A stretch of DNA of 64,000 nt, taken from sequence record PV682947.1; one strand, 5' to 3'. This DNA comes from Escherichia phage WPEC4. Shown piece by piece: positions 33,451 through 38,936 of this stretch; the stretch's first letter is position 1; every line of letters begins with the position of its first letter. The translations under genes were made by a program, and so were the position numbers. A model generated the notes under the pieces. That model did no database searches. It was not told the origin of the DNA and was given only the letters and a program-made list of their open reading frames with translations.

Positions 33451-33710
33451 TTAGAGAATGACGCGCAGGGGCGGTGTTTGTCTCGCGCTCCCGTGTCCCC
33501 TCGCCATGTAATAAGAATAACAGATCCAGCCAGGAAAGCAAGTGATTATTTTATCTTTACATTTCTTTACAAATATATAGCGCCCAGCCTACCGGCGATC
33601 AACCTTCCAACCAGTGCCCCTGGTATGTTAGCCCCGCCTTTACGCCGTGGGGTGGCGCTTCCTCTTCTGTATGTAAAACAGTATAAGCCCGATCCCTGGG
33701 CTTGTCAAGA

Positions 33711-33974
33711 TTATTTTTTGTTTTCTTGCCAGGATAGGACACCTAACCAAAAATACATATCGCCCCGCGCCCCTGGTGGTATCTTGCTTTCCCCGCCGCC
33801 ACTGCAAGCCCATAAATAACCATCAGCGAACGGATCAAAATTTTCTATCTCTTCCACCTTATGATCGCCCAGGTTGAGAACGGTTTCAACCTTTAAACCC
33901 GTTGCGCTCGCTACCTGGTGCACCGTGCCGCCTTGCCAGCCTAACGAGTGCATAAGATGTAATGTAGTAATCAT
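33711..33974 (-). CDS. hypothetical protein in GC-rich segment
   Basis: 87-aa ORF with GC-rich codon usage unlike neighbours; weak RBS. Confidence 0.3.
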   Translation of the reverse strand: MITTLHLMHSLGWQGGTVHQVASATGLKVETVLNLGDHKVEEIENFDPFADGYLWACSGGGESKIPPGARGDMYFWLGVLSWQENKK

Positions 33975-34082
33975 GGTGTCGCCCTTTCTTTGTTGTGCGC
34001 CCTGGTTGGCGCGGTAGAAAGATAATAGCCCTTTCCTTTATATATAGCAAGCAAAAAGAAAAATAAAAAGATTAAAAAGTGG

Positions 34083-34140
34083 TTGACGTTCGCCAGGTGG
34101 CGGCATAATATTTACCACGTAGGGCGGCAATGGTGCCGCT
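34083..34140 (+). promoter_or_regulatory. Early-type sigma70 promoter P1 with conserved leader hairpin
   Basis: TTGACG-17-TAATAT-ttaccacgtaGGGCGGCAATGGTGCCGCT. Confidence 0.65.
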
Positions 34141-34160
34141 CACTATCTGGAGTTAAGATC

Positions 34161-34358
34161 ATGGCAACATTGCACATAGTAGCGAAAGCAGGACAAATCA
34201 ACGTAGTGGTAAACGGCTTTACTGAATTTAGTCACCCCCAGGACGACTATGAAACGGTTTTATCTTTCCTTGATTCTCTGTTAGAAATGAGCGTCATTAC
34301 AGAAGATCAGCACGCTACTAAGTGCGAACGTGTACGCCGTATCGCTGGCGAAGAATAA
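34161..34358 (+). CDS. small hypothetical protein (65 aa)
   Basis: ATG after GGAGTTAAG; follows P1. Confidence 0.5.
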   Translation: MATLHIVAKAGQINVVVNGFTEFSHPQDDYETVLSFLDSLLEMSVITEDQHATKCERVRRIAGEE

Positions 34359-34364
34359 AAAGTA

Positions 34365-34426
34365 TTGACAACAGGCAACAACCTGATAAGATGTATCACA
34401 TAGGGGCGGGAAGTGGTTTCCCGCTC
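34365..34426 (+). promoter_or_regulatory. Early-type promoter P2 with leader hairpin
   Basis: TTGACA-16-TAAGAT-gtatcacataGGGGCGGGAAGTGGTTTCCCGCTC. Confidence 0.65.
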
Positions 34427-34447
34427 ACAACAGAGAGATTAAAGATT

Positions 34448-34720
34448 ATGGCATCATATAGCGCAACAATGATCGTAACGGGTACCACTGGTAAACCTAT
34501 GAGCGGTGGCGGATCTTTCGCTAACATCAATATTGACGGGCGCTTATCCCTGGACGCAGCGATCGCCGTAGCGCGGGAAACATTTAAGAAAGAATGTAAT
34601 TTCAACAAGCAAGATTATTTAGGTTTCGCTATTGAAAAAACCGCGCGCTTTGTTGATTATAAAAGCCCGAAAATGGTTGATACTACACTAAAAGCGCAAG
34701 ATGTAGCATTTTTGCTTTAA
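34448..34720 (+). CDS. small hypothetical protein (90 aa)
   Basis: ATG after AGAGAGATTAAAG; follows P2. Confidence 0.5.
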   Translation: MASYSATMIVTGTTGKPMSGGGSFANINIDGRLSLDAAIAVARETFKKECNFNKQDYLGFAIEKTARFVDYKSPKMVDTTLKAQDVAFLL

Positions 34721-34723
34721 GGC

Positions 34724-34778
34724 TTGACATTAACGAATAATTTACTAATATGTTGCATAAGGCGGGAATAGTTCCCGC
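34724..34778 (+). promoter_or_regulatory. Early-type promoter P3 with leader hairpin
   Basis: TTGACA-16-TAATAT-gttgcataaGGCGGGAATAGTTCCCGC. Confidence 0.65.
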
Positions 34779-34796
34779 TATTTGTAAGGTGATAGA

Positions 34797-35054
34797 ATGT
34801 TTTACATCAAGTTAAAAGGTCACGTGATCGCGTTCAAAGATAATGCTTTTTACAGATTAGCAAAATATGCTTTAATCCATCCTCATTATGTTTATATAAG
34901 GGGGCGTGATGAAATAAATATCTTTGATCAAACAACATGCGAGAACATCGAGATCCGCAAGGTTGGCGTACGTGACTATCGTACATCTTTCTACCCTTGT
35001 AAGGATTCAGCAAGTCTTTTTAAAGTATGTCAATTGTTGAAAAAAGGTGGTTAA
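34797..35054 (+). CDS. small hypothetical protein (85 aa)
   Basis: ORF after P3. Confidence 0.5.
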   Translation: MFYIKLKGHVIAFKDNAFYRLAKYALIHPHYVYIRGRDEINIFDQTTCENIEIRKVGVRDYRTSFYPCKDSASLFKVCQLLKKGG

Positions 35055-35055
35055 T

Positions 35056-35613
35056 ATGGGGCGTGAATATGTGATCCAGTCTTGGGTAAAACATGAAGCA
35101 GATGATCCGCGCATCATTCCCGATCATCTTATCGATGAATCCACGGGCTATAGCGGTGAGCAAATAGGTAACAGGTTAGCACGTAGTAACGGCAACGTAA
35201 AAGCGCGTTGTGTGCGCCCTGGCTGGCTGGCAAATGGTAACGCTGATTTATCCAGTGCGGAAGATGCGAGCGACGGCGCGAAAGATAATCCTTTGTACAA
35301 AGTTGATCCGGCTTTTCGTGTCCTGGATGAATACCCCAGCAAGATAGCGGCGCTTGATGAAGCCCTAGAAAGTAAGCGCATCACCTGGACCGCTTACAAC
35401 ATGGCAAAAAATGTACTTGATGGTAAATTGATTCAAGCTGAAAGAAAATTAGCCAAAATTGCAGCCATAGCCCAGGAGGAAGACGAGGAGACAACGGAAG
35501 AGGAAGAGTACGAAGAGATCCCGCCGTTGTTGTGTGTTGATGCTTTTCCTGATTATCAGCCGACAGAGGAAGAAAAAAGGATCGCGCTAGAAAACTTTGA
35601 AAATAGTCTTTGA
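35056..35613 (+). CDS. hypothetical protein with acidic C-terminal region
   Basis: ATG after AAAGGTGG RBS; Glu/Asp-rich segment EEDEETTEEEEYEE. Confidence 0.5.
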   Translation: MGREYVIQSWVKHEADDPRIIPDHLIDESTGYSGEQIGNRLARSNGNVKARCVRPGWLANGNADLSSAEDASDGAKDNPLYKVDPAFRVLDEYPSKIAALDEALESKRITWTAYNMAKNVLDGKLIQAERKLAKIAAIAQEEDEETTEEEEYEEIPPLLCVDAFPDYQPTEEEKRIALENFENSL

Positions 35614-35667
35614 CATATCGCCGCCACTGGCATAATATTTACCACGTAGGGCGGCAATGGTGCCGCT
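35610..35667 (+). promoter_or_regulatory. Early-type promoter P4 with leader hairpin
   Basis: TTGACA-17-TAATAT-ttaccacgtaGGGCGGCAATGGTGCCGC (near-identical to P1). Confidence 0.65.
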
Positions 35668-37837: not shown

Positions 37838-37840
37838 AAC

Positions 37841-37899
37841 TTGACATAGGTTTAATTTTCAGTAAACTGTTACACGTAGGGCGGGAACTGTTCCTGCTC
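37841..37899 (+). promoter_or_regulatory. Early-type promoter P10 with leader hairpin
   Basis: TTGACA-16-TAAACT-gttacacgtaGGGCGGGAACTGTTCCTGCTC. Confidence 0.6.
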
Positions 37900-37916
37900 A
37901 AAAAGAGAGAAAGACC

Positions 37917-38270
37917 ATGAAAGCACAAAATGCAATTAAAGAGTACATCCTTGCCGCTATCGATTTTAATGATTATGGTATTACAACAGAAAAAGAGAAG
38001 ATCGCGGAATTGATGCGCCGTTTTAATTCTGAATATTGGTACCCTGATAATCAATCACGTTTCAATTATAGCATTGTGAAAGCACTTGCATCATGGTTAC
38101 AAGGTTTACCATCAGATATTAATATCGCTTTCGAATATTGGGAAGTAGATCGCTTGTTAACATCTTGGGGATACATTAAAGAGAATAGCAGCGATGATAA
38201 AATCCAACGAGAAAGGGAAAATTATTGGCTTTATATTGCAGGTGTGATCCTTGCTTGCTCTTATGAATAA
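37917..38270 (+). CDS. hypothetical protein (117 aa)
   Basis: ORF after P10. Confidence 0.5.
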   Translation: MKAQNAIKEYILAAIDFNDYGITTEKEKIAELMRRFNSEYWYPDNQSRFNYSIVKALASWLQGLPSDINIAFEYWEVDRLLTSWGYIKENSSDDKIQRERENYWLYIAGVILACSYE

Positions 38271-38276
38271 TAAACC

Positions 38277-38330
38277 TTGACAATTTTACAAAATAGTTTA
38301 AATTAACAATATGGCGGCAATGGTGCCGCT
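38277..38330 (+). promoter_or_regulatory. Early-type promoter P11 with leader hairpin
   Basis: TTGACA-16-TAAATT-aacaataTGGCGGCAATGGTGCCGC. Confidence 0.55.
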
Positions 38331-38349
38331 AATATAAAGAGGAAACAAA

Positions 38350-38496
38350 ATGAATACATCTAATCGCGCAGAAAAAATTCAATCTTCCAAGATCCGCAAG
38401 GCCTGGAATGAAGAAGTGATCCGCAAAGGCGATAAGCGCAATAAAACAAAGCGCGGGAAGAGTGATAAATATAATTGGATGGATTTAGAGGACTAA
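38350..38496 (+). CDS. small basic protein (48 aa)
   Basis: Unlisted ORF MNTSNRAEKIQSSKIRKAW... with AGAGGAAA RBS. Confidence 0.45.
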   Translation: MNTSNRAEKIQSSKIRKAWNEEVIRKGDKRNKTKRGKSDKYNWMDLED

Positions 38497-38503
38497 CATA
38501 ACA

Positions 38504-38530
38504 AGGGCGCATCAAGCGCCCTTTCTTTTT
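38504..38530 (+). terminator. intrinsic terminator
   Basis: AGGGCGC-ATCAA-GCGCCCT followed by TTCTTTTT. Confidence 0.7.
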
Positions 38531-38551
38531 ACATGCAGAGGATAAACACAG

Positions 38552-38737
38552 ATGACTTTAAACGAGCTTAAAACAGCCTACAACGCAACATTAAAAATAG
38601 CCGTGCGTTACCGTGATGAGTACGGTTTTATTGCGCAGGGCGTGATCCTGGGCTTTTCTGACGATGGTTTGATCTATGTTGATGCACATCACAACAAGGT
38701 TAAACCTGAAAACGTCATCAGTATAAAATATCTTTAA
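38552..38737 (+). CDS. small hypothetical protein (61 aa)
   Basis: ORF after the terminator. Confidence 0.45.
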   Translation: MTLNELKTAYNATLKIAVRYRDEYGFIAQGVILGFSDDGLIYVDAHHNKVKPENVISIKYL

Positions 38738-38743
38738 AAATGG

Positions 38744-38800
38744 TTGACATTATAACCAGATTTACTAAGATGTATTGCATAGGGCGGGAATAGTTCCCGA
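38744..38800 (+). promoter_or_regulatory. Early-type promoter P12 with leader hairpin
   Basis: TTGACA-16-TAAGAT-gtattgcataGGGCGGGAATAGTTCCCGA. Confidence 0.65.
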
Positions 38801-38822
38801 CCACACAAAAAGAGAAAACATT

Positions 38823-38936
38823 ATGATCACTATCACAACAAAACAAGAAAAAATTATTACAGATATTGCCGCCGTTGCCGCTATTGCTATTATAGGTACC
38901 TACTATGACACCGCGCGACCTTCCTCCTTACATGAA
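38823..38936 (+). pseudogene. 5' portion of a small membrane-protein gene (MITF-start family) interrupted by the repeat array
   Basis: MITITTKQEKIITDIAAVAAIAIIGTYYDTARPSSLHE then runs into array unit A; array units G then H together spell the probable continuation ...HEIAAVASVGVLFYVGKRYLSPMINKLT. Confidence 0.45.

Follow-up and report, generated by a model that had tools for sequence, protein, structure and literature searches.

Promoter and stem-loop cassettes in a probable early small-gene array of a Phapecoctavirus genome

The class I genes of T7 (including gene 1.1) and the pre-early and early regions of T5 consist of small genes with strong host-type promoters, whose functions are mostly unknown or host-directed, and in T7 the early genes give a single long transcript that is cut by RNase III. 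Emory, Bouvet and Belasco are said to have shown in 1992 that 5′-terminal stem-loops, such as that of the ompA 5′ untranslated region, stabilise E. coli mRNAs. Promoter and stem-loop occur together in the promoter-early stem-loop (PeSL) cassettes of the T4-type phages RB49, phi1, PST and nt-1 (Arbiol et al. 2010, PMC2839356; Comeau et al. 2014, PMC4122927). In archaeal viruses, shared regulatory sequences have been used to find anti-defence genes, with anti-CRISPR proteins confirmed experimentally (PMC11065993).

The 64-kb stretch of DNA analysed here (the window) comes from the genome of a Phapecoctavirus (Stephanstirmvirinae), a phAPEC8-like E. coli phage, with 94% identity to Phapecoctavirus genomes and 100% identity to WPEC1 over 34405–38936. 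Fifteen small genes (34–185 aa), all on the + strand, form an array at 34083–38978 whose order is kept across the genus and in phi92 (Table 1). Taken as a whole, this segment is probably the promoter-dense opening part of the Phapecoctavirus early small-gene arm.

Table 1. Positions in the window of the gene array, its cassettes and the features at its edges
Feature	Position	Strand	Description
Palindromic boxes	33346..33451	.	four 19-bp boxes AATGAGAAnnnTTCTCATT, starts 33346, 33375, 33404, 33433
Conserved non-coding element	33440..33710	-	GC-rich left edge of the segment as initially annotated
87-aa gene	33711..33974	-	phrog_19316
Cassette 1	34083..34150	+	TTGACG-17-TAATAT, hairpin GGGCGGCAATGGTGCCGCTC, dG -17.7; second small hairpin in promoter spacer
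g1	34161..34358	+	65 aa, pI 4.8, phrog_23268
Cassette 2	34365..34426	+	TTGACA-16-TAAGAT, hairpin dG -15.5; contains WPEC1 breakpoint 34405
g2	34448..34720	+	90 aa, phrog_8099
Cassette 3	34724..34787	+	TTGACA-16-TAATAT, hairpin dG -15.9
g3	34797..35054	+	85 aa, pI 9.5, phrog_17947; 3′ end adjoins g4 start
g4	35056..35613	+	185 aa, pI 4.5; no promoter of its own
Cassette 4	35610..35674	+	TTGACA-17-TAATAT, hairpin dG -17.7; -35 overlaps g4 stop codon; extra spacer hairpin
g5	35696..35800	+	34 aa, hydrophobic peptide
g6	35811..36092	+	93 aa, pI 4.6, DUF1033 family; no promoter of its own
Cassette 5	36112..36172	+	TTGACA-16-TAAGAT, hairpin dG -14.0
g7	36194..36556	+	120 aa, phrog_7352
Cassette 6	36563..36627	+	TTGACA-16-TATAGT, hairpin dG -15.0
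g8	36642..36821	+	59 aa, pI 4.3, phrog_9374; missing from ASO2A and SKA64
Cassette 7	36841..36892	+	TTGACA-17-CATAAT, short hairpin GGGAA-CAC-TTCCC, dG -5.5
g9	36917..37282	+	121 aa, phrog_6246
Cassette 8	37289..37351	+	TTGACA-16-TAAACT, then hairpin
g10	37375..37548	+	57 aa, pI 11.0, phrog_13689
Cassette 9	37545..37583	+	TTGACT-16-TATAAT; -10 within loop of stem TATAGCGCC/GGCGCTATA
g11	37616..37837	+	73 aa, pI 4.4, phrog_25390
Cassette 10	37841..37899	+	TTGACA-16-TAAACT, then hairpin; precisely missing from phage nepoznato
g12	37917..38270	+	117 aa, pI 4.8, phrog_11100
Cassette 11	38277..38331	+	TTGACA-16-TAAATT, hairpin dG -12.7
g13	38350..38496	+	48 aa, pI 10.0, T7 gene 1.1 family (PF08200)
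Intrinsic terminator	38503..38523	+	sole canonical one in the array: 8-bp GC stem, then TTTCTTTTT
g14	38552..38737	+	61 aa, phrog_25271; no recognisable promoter
Cassette 12	38744..38802	+	TTGACA-16-TAAGAT, hairpin dG -10.7
g15	38823..38978	+	51 aa as read; cut short and chimeric from about 38938; 68 aa in relatives
Scrambled mosaic	38859..45659	.	units of about 77 nt, both orientations, 6.8 kb

The initial annotation had proposed about 15 small genes, each with its own strong promoter. The genes are there (15 ORFs, 34161–38978), and a near-consensus sigma-70 promoter precedes 12 of them, the exceptions being g4, g6 and g14. When 34000–38900 was scanned on both strands for the pattern TTGACN-N16/17-[TC]AnnnT, 13 matches were found on the + strand and none on the − strand, against a mean of 0.36 and a maximum of 3 in dinucleotide shuffles and a density of 0.175 per kb per strand in the remainder of the window. 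Every cassette promoter has a TTGACN −35 element and a spacer of 16–17 nt, and the 20 nt 5′ of each −35 are 78% A+T, compared with 61% window-wide. Strong sigma-70-like promoters are heavily enriched, and their density before small genes gives the array an organisation like that of lytic-phage early regions. As in T7 and T5, strong host-type promoters drive small genes, one of which (g13) belongs to the T7 gp1.1 family; unlike T7, which makes one long early RNA, the array has a promoter for nearly every gene.

The segment had been drawn from 33460 to 38936, and neither end holds. On the left, 33460–34082 (620 nt), where GC is highest at 48%, lies outside the small-gene array and is taken up by a non-coding element and a − strand gene. 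The element contains a sigma-70-like promoter (33708–33680) whose spacer carries a hairpin and, after the promoter, conserved sequence rich in GC; it is 78–100% identical to phi92, its core is 74–85% identical in Vequintavirinae, and an Rfam search with it gave no match. The 87-aa gene is intact in five relatives, with 35 substitutions at third codon positions versus 17 at first and 13 at second positions. The 19-bp boxes, spaced by exactly 29 bp, lie in the left control region outside the array, and the window holds 8 box matches against 0.92 expected. On the right, 38936 is not a biological boundary, as a scramble of short units begins at 38859; this mosaic is probably an assembly artefact that ends the array at about 38938, and g15 is truncated because the scramble cuts into it.

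The main feature of the segment is the promoter-hairpin cassette, which the initial annotation does not mention. Each cassette runs from an AT-rich stretch with an upstream stop codon, through the sigma-70 promoter and a GC-rich stem-loop, to a purine-rich Shine-Dalgarno sequence and the ATG. The stem-loop has 7–10 bp and begins about 10–11 nt 3′ of the −10 hexamer, and in 10 of the 12 cassettes its dG lies between −10.7 and −17.7 kcal/mol, a value of −10.5 being reached by only 5% of shuffled sequences. These 12 cassettes fall within 4.7 kb, with 1 elsewhere in the window, while ASO2A carries 12 + 7 in a single stretch of about 9.5 kb that spans the record ends, with no GGGCGG-type cassette found in the next 45 kb.

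This anatomy matches that of the T4-type PeSL, here in another phage subfamily. Both share the order of upstream stop in AT-rich DNA, sigma-70 promoter, G-run/C-run stem-loop, Shine-Dalgarno sequence and start codon; in both, the cassettes cluster in a variable region before small genes of unknown function and contain the end points of indels and replacements that separate close relatives. The PeSL subclass with the stem-loop 3′ of the −10 is the main form here, and other subclasses are represented by cassette 9 (−10 inside the loop) and by cassettes 1 and 4 (extra spacer hairpin). The differences lie in the lineage, which is Stephanstirmvirinae and not T4-type; in the hairpin position, nearly always 3′ of the −10, which places it in the 5′ untranslated region; and in the hairpin sequence, which varies far less (GGGCGG...CCGCYC around a loop core of AAT(G/A)G) and lacks a U tract. 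In addition, terminator activity, promoter activity and mini-circles have been demonstrated for RB49/phi1, whereas the promoters and hairpins of the array described here are predicted from sequence.

The acidic proteins (g4 and g6) and the basic peptides (g10, g13 and g3) that had been noted were all recovered, as was a hydrophobic peptide, g5, for which some annotations use an alternative ATG at 35657, inside the hairpin loop. The g13 product matches Pfam PF08200 (T7 early protein gp1.1) with E = 4.9e-13 and 49.8 bits against a cut-off of 21; the match of g15 to phrog_30003 is limited to residues 4–43.

It is possible, and we suggest this tentatively, that these small proteins, expressed immediately after infection, inhibit host defence systems or host machinery. 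The early-region architecture, the gp1.1 homologue and the two acidic proteins are consistent with such a role, as is the variable gene content of close relatives. Homologues of g6, which is missing from DE16, ASO2A and ECML-183-2, occur in unrelated coliphage lineages (phi92 and jumbo phages of about 350 kb), a pattern typical of accessory genes. A NADAR-domain gene lies just upstream, and NADAR proteins can reverse DNA ADP-ribosylation. However, no array product matched a known-function family in Pfam, PHROGs, NCBIfam or PADLOC (which covers defence, not anti-defence, systems), with NCBIfam and PADLOC giving no match at all; none of the products proved homologous to Ocr, gp0.7, gp2 or a T5 pre-early protein, and seven of the products gave nothing significant against PDB sequences. 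Structure prediction yielded a confident model for g6 (pLDDT 89), with no match in a structural search; g4, whose N-terminal half is conserved and which also contains a helical hairpin and an acidic linker, likewise had no match among PDB sequences, and its model (pLDDT 67) is too poor for comparison. The archaeal-virus study offers a parallel, in that small early genes, those of anti-defence proteins among them, share a promoter or regulatory motif by which they can be recognised, although the anti-CRISPR proteins there are confirmed and the genes here are candidates by sequence (PMC11065993).

Pooling the window with six relatives gives 53 unique cassettes, with 38 distinct hairpin sequences in which pairing is kept, and the hairpin before g2 exists in three versions in different phages. 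In each of the 23 G-T pairs the G belongs to the 5′ arm, and in 44 of the 53 cassettes the + strand folds more stably than the − strand (P = 5e-5), suggesting that the structure forms in the sense RNA. As in the ompA type, a stable hairpin would lie ahead of the ribosome binding site and within a few nucleotides of where the transcript is predicted to start; the differences are that the start sites here are predicted and that a dozen genes carry the motif, with its sequence conserved. We think it unlikely that the hairpins are instead terminators or attenuators insulating each gene, the role proposed for PeSL stem-loops. WebGeSTer and TransTermHP do place 'rho-independent terminators' on them in the ASO2A record (MZ726793), and one RB49 PeSL stem-loop cut lacZ expression as much as rrnB T1 (PMC2839356). 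However, the hairpins lie 3′ of the −10 of the next gene's promoter and so would affect the transcript from that promoter as well, and the 8 nt 3′ of each stem are A-rich with 0–3 T, so that they are not canonical terminators; a U tract follows only the intrinsic terminator beyond g13.

Equally improbable, in our judgement, is that the hairpin is a tag recognised by a dedicated factor of phage or host (an RNA-binding repressor, nuclease or antiterminator) that controls all early genes together. The GGGCGG 5′ arm, the CAC(A/G)TA that precedes it and the loop core (AATGG or AATAG) are conserved beyond the needs of pairing, a degree of conservation that may reflect binding by a specific factor and not just stabilisation. 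The motif is also limited to one genome region and one phage subfamily: it occurs in phi92 and KP13-16, whereas the small-gene region of 121Q, which holds a g6 homologue, lacks it. Yet loops and upper stems vary (loops include ATGG, TAG, TAC and GTGGT), the cassettes at 36841 and 37545 have quite different or differently placed hairpins, no candidate binding protein was found, and gene conversion between cassettes could explain the conservation.

The higher GC and distinct codon usage that had been described are both real, the former being small: 41.5% versus 38.4%, a difference of 3 points, with the GC of the segment higher than in any other window of its size in the 64 kb. The excess has three sources, namely the GC-rich hairpins, the left edge outside the array and a raised GC3 in the genes, and 39.3% remains once hairpins and left edge are removed. 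GC3 is 0.393 in the array genes versus 0.305 in 36 long ORFs (P = 2e-5), and their codon-usage distance exceeds all 500 resamplings, with CGC, ATC, GGC, CCG, AGC and GCG enriched and AGA, CCA and GGA depleted. The codons favoured by this shift are presumably those preferred by E. coli. Since adjacent + strand genes share a weaker GC3 shift (0.34–0.39), an expression class fits better than foreign origin. A recent import from a GC-richer source, for which the compositional deviation and the g6 homologues in unrelated phages might speak, is very unlikely given the small GC excess, much of it due to the hairpins and the left edge, the intermediate GC3 of the neighbours, the absence of integrase and transposase genes, and the 239 matching phage records (32 covering at least 80% of the segment length), with synteny in the relatives examined and phi92. 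The word island is therefore misleading for a conserved, syntenic segment; the original observation was largely real and is partly confirmed, and its interpretation is partly supported, namely in what concerns the organisation of the genes.

Relatives gain or lack genes as entire modules, the edges of which lie in the cassettes. Across six relatives, 10 of 12 indel breakpoints fall inside cassettes, which make up 22.5% of the region (P = 1.4e-5), an enrichment partly expected because cassettes are nearly the only intergenic DNA here and breaks within genes would be selected against; one indel, of g6 (35786/36095), has no cassette end point. Cassette 8 corresponds in relatives to two copies around about 0.9 kb missing from the window, and at 37300–37377 both flanking alignments pass through the same cassette, an overlap that is the signature of a deletion between two cassette copies.

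We propose that host RNA polymerase would transcribe the array genes immediately after DNA entry, with the hairpin at the extreme 5′ end of each mRNA (about +3 to +5 from the predicted start sites), where it would most likely protect the message from 5′-end-dependent decay; read-through transcripts may also have their 3′ ends at this hairpin. Host-preferred synonymous codons would fit translation at a stage when tRNAs encoded by the phage are not yet available. The proteins, by analogy, are most likely accessory early functions, for example in host takeover or counter-defence. Because the cassettes are alike in sequence, they could provide homology for recombination that adds, removes or swaps genes, as has been proposed for the T4-type PeSL.

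The small-gene array of WPEC4 contains 15 plus-strand ORFs of 34-185 aa (g1-g15) between 34161 and 38978, and both these genes and the charges of their products agree with the initial annotation, which had described a run of small genes encoding acidic, basic and membrane-bound peptides. It had also assigned a promoter of its own to each gene, which was borne out for 12 of the 15 and failed for g4, which abuts g3, for g6, which comes after g5, and for g14, which comes after the sole canonical terminator of the array. The pattern TTGACN-N16/17-[TC]AnnnT was found 13 times on the plus strand of 34000-38900 and never on the minus strand, against a mean of 0.36 and a maximum of 3 in dinucleotide shuffles and a density of 0.175 per kb per strand in the rest of the window, with 12 of the 13 matches lying directly upstream of a gene.

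These promoters are one part of a longer repeated cassette, which the initial annotation had overlooked. Each cassette opens with about 20 nt of 78% A+T containing the stop codon of the preceding gene, continues with a -35 hexamer, a 16-17 nt spacer and a -10 hexamer, then with about 10-11 nt that commonly read GTATCAC(A/G)TA, a GC-rich stem-loop, typically GGGCGG(N)AAT(G/A)GT(N')CCGC(T/C)C, and an A-rich stretch with a purine-rich Shine-Dalgarno sequence (AAGAGAGA or AAGAGGAA), and ends in an ATG 9-24 nt 3' of the stem. TTGACN, the 16-17 nt spacer and either TAnnnT or CATAAT are present in all 12 cassettes of the array, and in 10 of them a stem-loop of -10.7 to -17.7 kcal/mol lies downstream of the -10; one of the remaining two (cassette 9) has its -10 inside the loop and the other a short 5-bp stem. 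In cassettes 1 and 4 the promoter spacer contains an additional small hairpin. The ATG of g5 used in some records (35657) sits within a hairpin loop, and a start at 35696, behind AAGAGG, is more likely judging from the sequence.

Features of the window referred to in the text
Feature	Position	Strand	Remarks
Further palindrome copies	75-93, 254-272		
TerC-family membrane protein gene	10229-11203		Pfam E = 4e-40
Outlying cassette	11279	-	precedes the TerC-family gene
AAA ATPase gene	29126-30265	+	upstream of the array; weak STAND-NTPase-like matches
Gene for protein with CapR homology domain	30787-31815	+	upstream of the array; annotated endonuclease in relatives
NADAR-domain protein gene	32363-32905	+	just upstream of the control region; Pfam E = 1e-35
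AT-rich repeats	33100-33340		
Four 19-bp palindromes, AATGAGAAnnnTTCTCATT	33346-33451		spaced exactly 29 bp
Non-coding element	33440-33710	-	
Reported segment	33460-38936		
Left edge of the segment	33460-34082		outside the array
87-aa gene	33711-33974	-	
Small-gene array	34083-38978	+	
g4	35056-35613	+	
g6	35811-36092	+	
Cassette 8	37289-37351		
g13	38350-38496	+	
Canonical terminator	38503-38523		
Mosaic	38859-45659	both	6.8 kb of ~77-nt units

Across the window and six relatives we analysed the hairpin in 53 unique cassettes, among which 38 distinct hairpin sequences occur with pairing kept in all of them; a value of -10.5 kcal/mol was reached by only 5% of shuffled sequences. In all 23 G-T pairs the 5' arm supplies the G and the 3' arm the T, so that on the opposite strand these 23 positions would be C-A mismatches, and the plus-strand fold is the more stable one in 44 of the 53 cassettes (Wilcoxon P = 5e-5). 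The orientation of the G-T pairs and the greater stability of the plus strand argue for a structure of the sense strand, presumably formed as RNA, and against a symmetric duplex operator. Sigma-70 promoters start transcription 6-8 nt beyond the -10, which would place the beginning of the stem near +3 to +5 in every mRNA.

The GenBank record of the relative ASO2A labels these hairpins, about 10 nt after annotated promoters, 'rho-independent terminator predicted by WebGeSTer'. Only 0-3 T are present among the 8 nt after each stem, which means that the cassette hairpins are not canonical intrinsic terminators, the combination of a GC hairpin and a U tract being found only at the terminator between g13 and g14. 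We also considered the sequence after the hairpin (CUCACAACAGA) as a boxA of lambda nut or rrn antiterminators and the hairpins as RNase III sites, and rejected the former by eye because the U-rich core is missing and the latter because the stems measure only 7-10 bp. Rather than a passive stabiliser, the RNA hairpin could be a tag recognised by a dedicated factor, of the phage or of the host, which turns the early gene set on or off as a whole.

In anatomy, location and association with indels, the sequences of the array cassettes match the kind known as promoter-early stem-loop (PeSL) cassettes, which have been described in the T4-type phages RB49 and phi1 (PMC2839356) and PST and nt-1 (PMC4122927). 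The 12 cassettes share with them a near-consensus sigma-70 promoter (TTGACA-N17-TATAAT-like), a stable stem-loop, for which PeSL cassettes have five alternative positions around the promoter, an AT-rich upstream part with a stop codon, a 3' Shine-Dalgarno sequence with a start codon, and clustering in variable regions before genes of unknown function; one of the published PeSL subclasses has its stem-loop downstream of the -10 (PMC2839356, PMC4122927). For RB49 and phi1, PeSL cassettes have been shown to act as strong promoters in vivo, to terminate or attenuate transcription through the stem-loop, and to form mini-circles by recombination between neighbours (PMC2839356). The array cassettes differ from PeSL in belonging to another phage lineage, in a hairpin nearly uniform in position and sequence, and in having no U tract, and they are known here from sequence alone. 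No description of such cassettes in phAPEC8-, phi92- or rV5-like phages was found in the searchable literature, the coverage of which is incomplete, so that this absence is weak evidence of novelty.

As in PeSL, indels and replacements between close relatives end in cassettes, which here make up nearly all of the intergenic DNA. Relatives differ by entire genes: g6 is absent from DE16, ASO2A and ECML-183-2, g8 is absent from ASO2A and SKA64, g7 and g8 are replaced in nepoznato, and about 0.9 kb with three genes found in relatives is missing from the window. With a cassette scored from -35 to ATG, plus or minus 5 nt, 10 of 12 breakpoints fell in cassettes, which occupy 22.5% of the array (binomial P = 1.4e-5), an enrichment that selection against intragenic breaks alone would also produce given this share of the intergenic DNA. 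At 37300-37377 the flanking alignments overlap across one cassette, which reads as the footprint of recombination (a deletion) between two cassette copies. Ahead of g2, three different hairpins are found depending on the phage, and unrelated genes can carry identical hairpins, a pattern indicating exchange between cassettes.

In the window, 12 copies lie within 4.7 kb and one lies elsewhere, ahead of the TerC-family gene. The 12 cassettes at the end of the ASO2A record and the 7 at its start form one stretch of ~9.5 kb, and none of the GGGCGG type was found in its next 45 kb, where small plus-strand genes become tightly packed. Among other Stephanstirmvirinae, phi92 (Justusliebigvirus) has the same cassettes and Klebsiella phage KP13-16 has at least one. 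We considered whether the cassette had travelled with g6 into jumbo phages and rejected this, since the region of the g6 homologue in phage 121Q has sigma-70 promoters and no GGGCGG hairpins. A 121Q promoter (5457) is followed by GTATTACATCAAG, the sequence after the -10 of cassette 8 (37316-37330), without the hairpin; this identity hints at promoter modules common to unrelated coliphages.

The reported segment was matched by megablast to 239 phage records, mostly Escherichia phages of the genus Phapecoctavirus, subfamily Stephanstirmvirinae, with genomes of ~150 kb, at ~94% identity across most of the query and 100% to WPEC1 over 34405-38936. All annotated relatives list the genes beneath the match as 'hypothetical protein'. 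In phAPEC8 the counterpart of the segment is genes 256-269 and 001-002, so that the conventional start of the phAPEC8 record falls inside the same array. Horizontal acquisition, as implied by the term island in the initial annotation, did not hold up, the segment being syntenic in relatives and having no mobility genes among its products; in itself the array region is nothing unusual in a lytic phage. From 30000 until ~34140 the window matches WPEC2 and WPEC6 at 100% identity, and from 34405 it matches WPEC1 at 100%, upstream of which WPEC1 has different genes. This switch falls in cassettes 1-2 and is due either to recombination at a cassette or to the poor assemblies.

The compositional shift behind that term is real, with 41.5% GC in the segment against 38.4% in non-overlapping windows of the same size, the maximum within the 64 kb, as is the different codon usage, the 14 intact genes having a GC3 of 0.393 and 36 long ORFs from other parts of the window one of 0.305 (Mann-Whitney P = 2e-5). 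The GC excess is small and has several sources: 13 masked hairpins (12 cassette hairpins and the terminator stem; 269 nt) have 65% GC, the left edge 48%, coding sequence 41% and other intergenic DNA 32%, and with hairpins and left edge removed the segment has 39.3%. The codon-usage distance of the array genes exceeded all 500 resamplings, with CGC, ATC, GGC, CCG, AGC, GCG and GCC enriched and AGA, CCA and GGA depleted, a shift that we take to be towards codons preferred by E. coli. Since the plus-strand genes immediately upstream of the array have intermediate GC3 values (0.34-0.39), the shift looks like a property of a transcription class and not of a foreign insert.

At the right edge, colinearity with relatives ends at 38935-38938, and from 38859 to 45659 the window is a mosaic whose repeated units stand in both orientations and in scrambled order. 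In normal Phapecoctavirus genomes these units find their matches at single, scattered loci, a tRNA region among them, yet no tRNA was detected in the window by ARAGORN. WPEC1, WPEC2 and WPEC6, the closest relatives, measure 155-161 kb rather than ~150 kb. The mosaic is probably an artefact of de Bruijn-graph assembly (k = 77). It truncates g15 at ~38938 and conceals the second half of the cassette array, present in relatives as a further ~5 kb.

All array proteins match PHROG families of unknown function. The product of g13 belongs to the T7 gene 1.1 family (PF08200, full profile length, 49.8 bits against a cut-off of 21, E = 4.9e-13). That of g6 matches DUF1033 (PF06279), a family without known function, marginally (27.5 bits against a cut-off of 25), and its homologues, from phi92 and jumbo coliphages of ~350 kb, bear the same precomputed Pfam match; its AlphaFold model (pLDDT 89) has a four-stranded sheet followed by a long helix and gave no significant match in a fold search against the PDB. 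Homologues of g4 come largely from phage-sized contigs (up to ~157 kb), the sole named one being from a Klebsiella phage. The N-terminal half of the g4 protein (GYSGEQxGNR) is strongly conserved and precedes a helical hairpin and an acidic linker, and the poor model of this protein (pLDDT 67, below 50 in the N-terminal half) was excluded from the fold search.

PADLOC, NCBIfam and PDB sequence searches of the array proteins returned no significant match; among PDB sequences, searched with seven products, no characterised inhibitor such as an anti-CRISPR, anti-Thoeris or anti-CBASS protein was matched. A likeness to DNA-mimic anti-restriction proteins (Ocr, ArdA) found no backing in PDB sequence matches for g4 and g6 or in significant fold matches for g6, and acidity alone (pI 4.5-4.6 for both) is not diagnostic of a DNA mimic. 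Profile, PDB sequence and structure searches revealed no new protein function among the array products, and anti-defence or host-takeover functions can therefore be proposed for them by analogy only. Since NADAR enzymes can remove ADP-ribose from DNA, the NADAR-domain gene, which lies beyond the reported segment, is a counter-defence candidate. Further upstream lie the genes for the CapR-domain protein and the AAA ATPase.

The left edge (33100-34082) is not part of the small-gene array. Its 87-aa gene is intact in relatives, with 35 substitutions at third codon positions against 17 and 13 at positions 1 and 2. The middle of this gene (33750-33850) is 44-66% identical to SKA64 and nepoznato and 88-96% identical to the more distant phi92, a closer match that implies two alleles exchanged between genera.

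Conservation of the adjacent non-coding element exceeds that of the coding sequence next to it: phi92 shares 78-100% identity with the element, and the Vequintavirinae genera Certrevirus, Mydovirus and Seunavirus (phages CR3, phiTE, KB57 and SalP219) share 74-85% with its core, always in unannotated DNA. The element opens with a conserved sigma-70-like promoter with a variable hairpin in its spacer, followed by the invariant core ACGCCACCCCACGGCGWAAAGGCGGGGCTAAC, in which a CCCC/GGGG pseudoknot is possible, and then by an apical stem of variable length and sequence. RNAalifold gave one covarying pair (7 A-U, 7 G-C) within an otherwise invariant helix and little structure in the distal half. 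Scans of the whole window for tRNA and Rfam families gave no matches, and a permissive Rfam scan of 32900-34100 gave chance-level matches only. The pseudo-ToxI locus of phiTE was rejected as a counterpart, the ToxI repeat being unmatched in the phiTE loci bearing the element.

The four 19-bp palindromes adjoin the element and the AT-rich repeats, and with the two further copies listed the window holds 8 matches in all against 0.92 expected; they look like iterons or operator sites. The left edge looks like a control region, in which the element may serve as a transcription-primed origin, give rise to a non-coding RNA, or do both. In one relative (IMGVR_UViG_2974574029_000001) an ORF that begins MKKVYGVGVNDSASPIKGCRFYATW has been inserted into the element directly behind GGATCGCTGGTA, and by eye only this ORF is homing-endonuclease-like; insertion after the core would fit a highly conserved target sequence.

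That the hairpin (GGGCGG, loop AAUGG/AAUAG, CCGCYC) is a regulon tag, the cassette a mobile module and the non-coding element a linked RNA or origin is a tentative proposal that we consider improbable. If true, the promoter-hairpin unit would be a Stephanstirmvirinae-specific mobile module bringing newly captured genes into the regulon, and, if linked to it, the element shared with Vequintavirinae would be a new non-coding RNA or transcription-primed replication origin controlling the region. For annotation, the cassettes call for corrections: at least one GenBank record labels the hairpins rho-independent terminators, and one annotated start codon lies within a hairpin loop. Phages of the phAPEC8-like group are being isolated and characterised as therapy candidates, and the cassette provides a simple sequence rule for listing their early accessory genes, which are a natural place to screen for host-takeover and counter-defence functions. 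The PeSL idea, that such cassettes express and shuffle accessory genes, would extend from T4-type phages to unrelated large coliphages.
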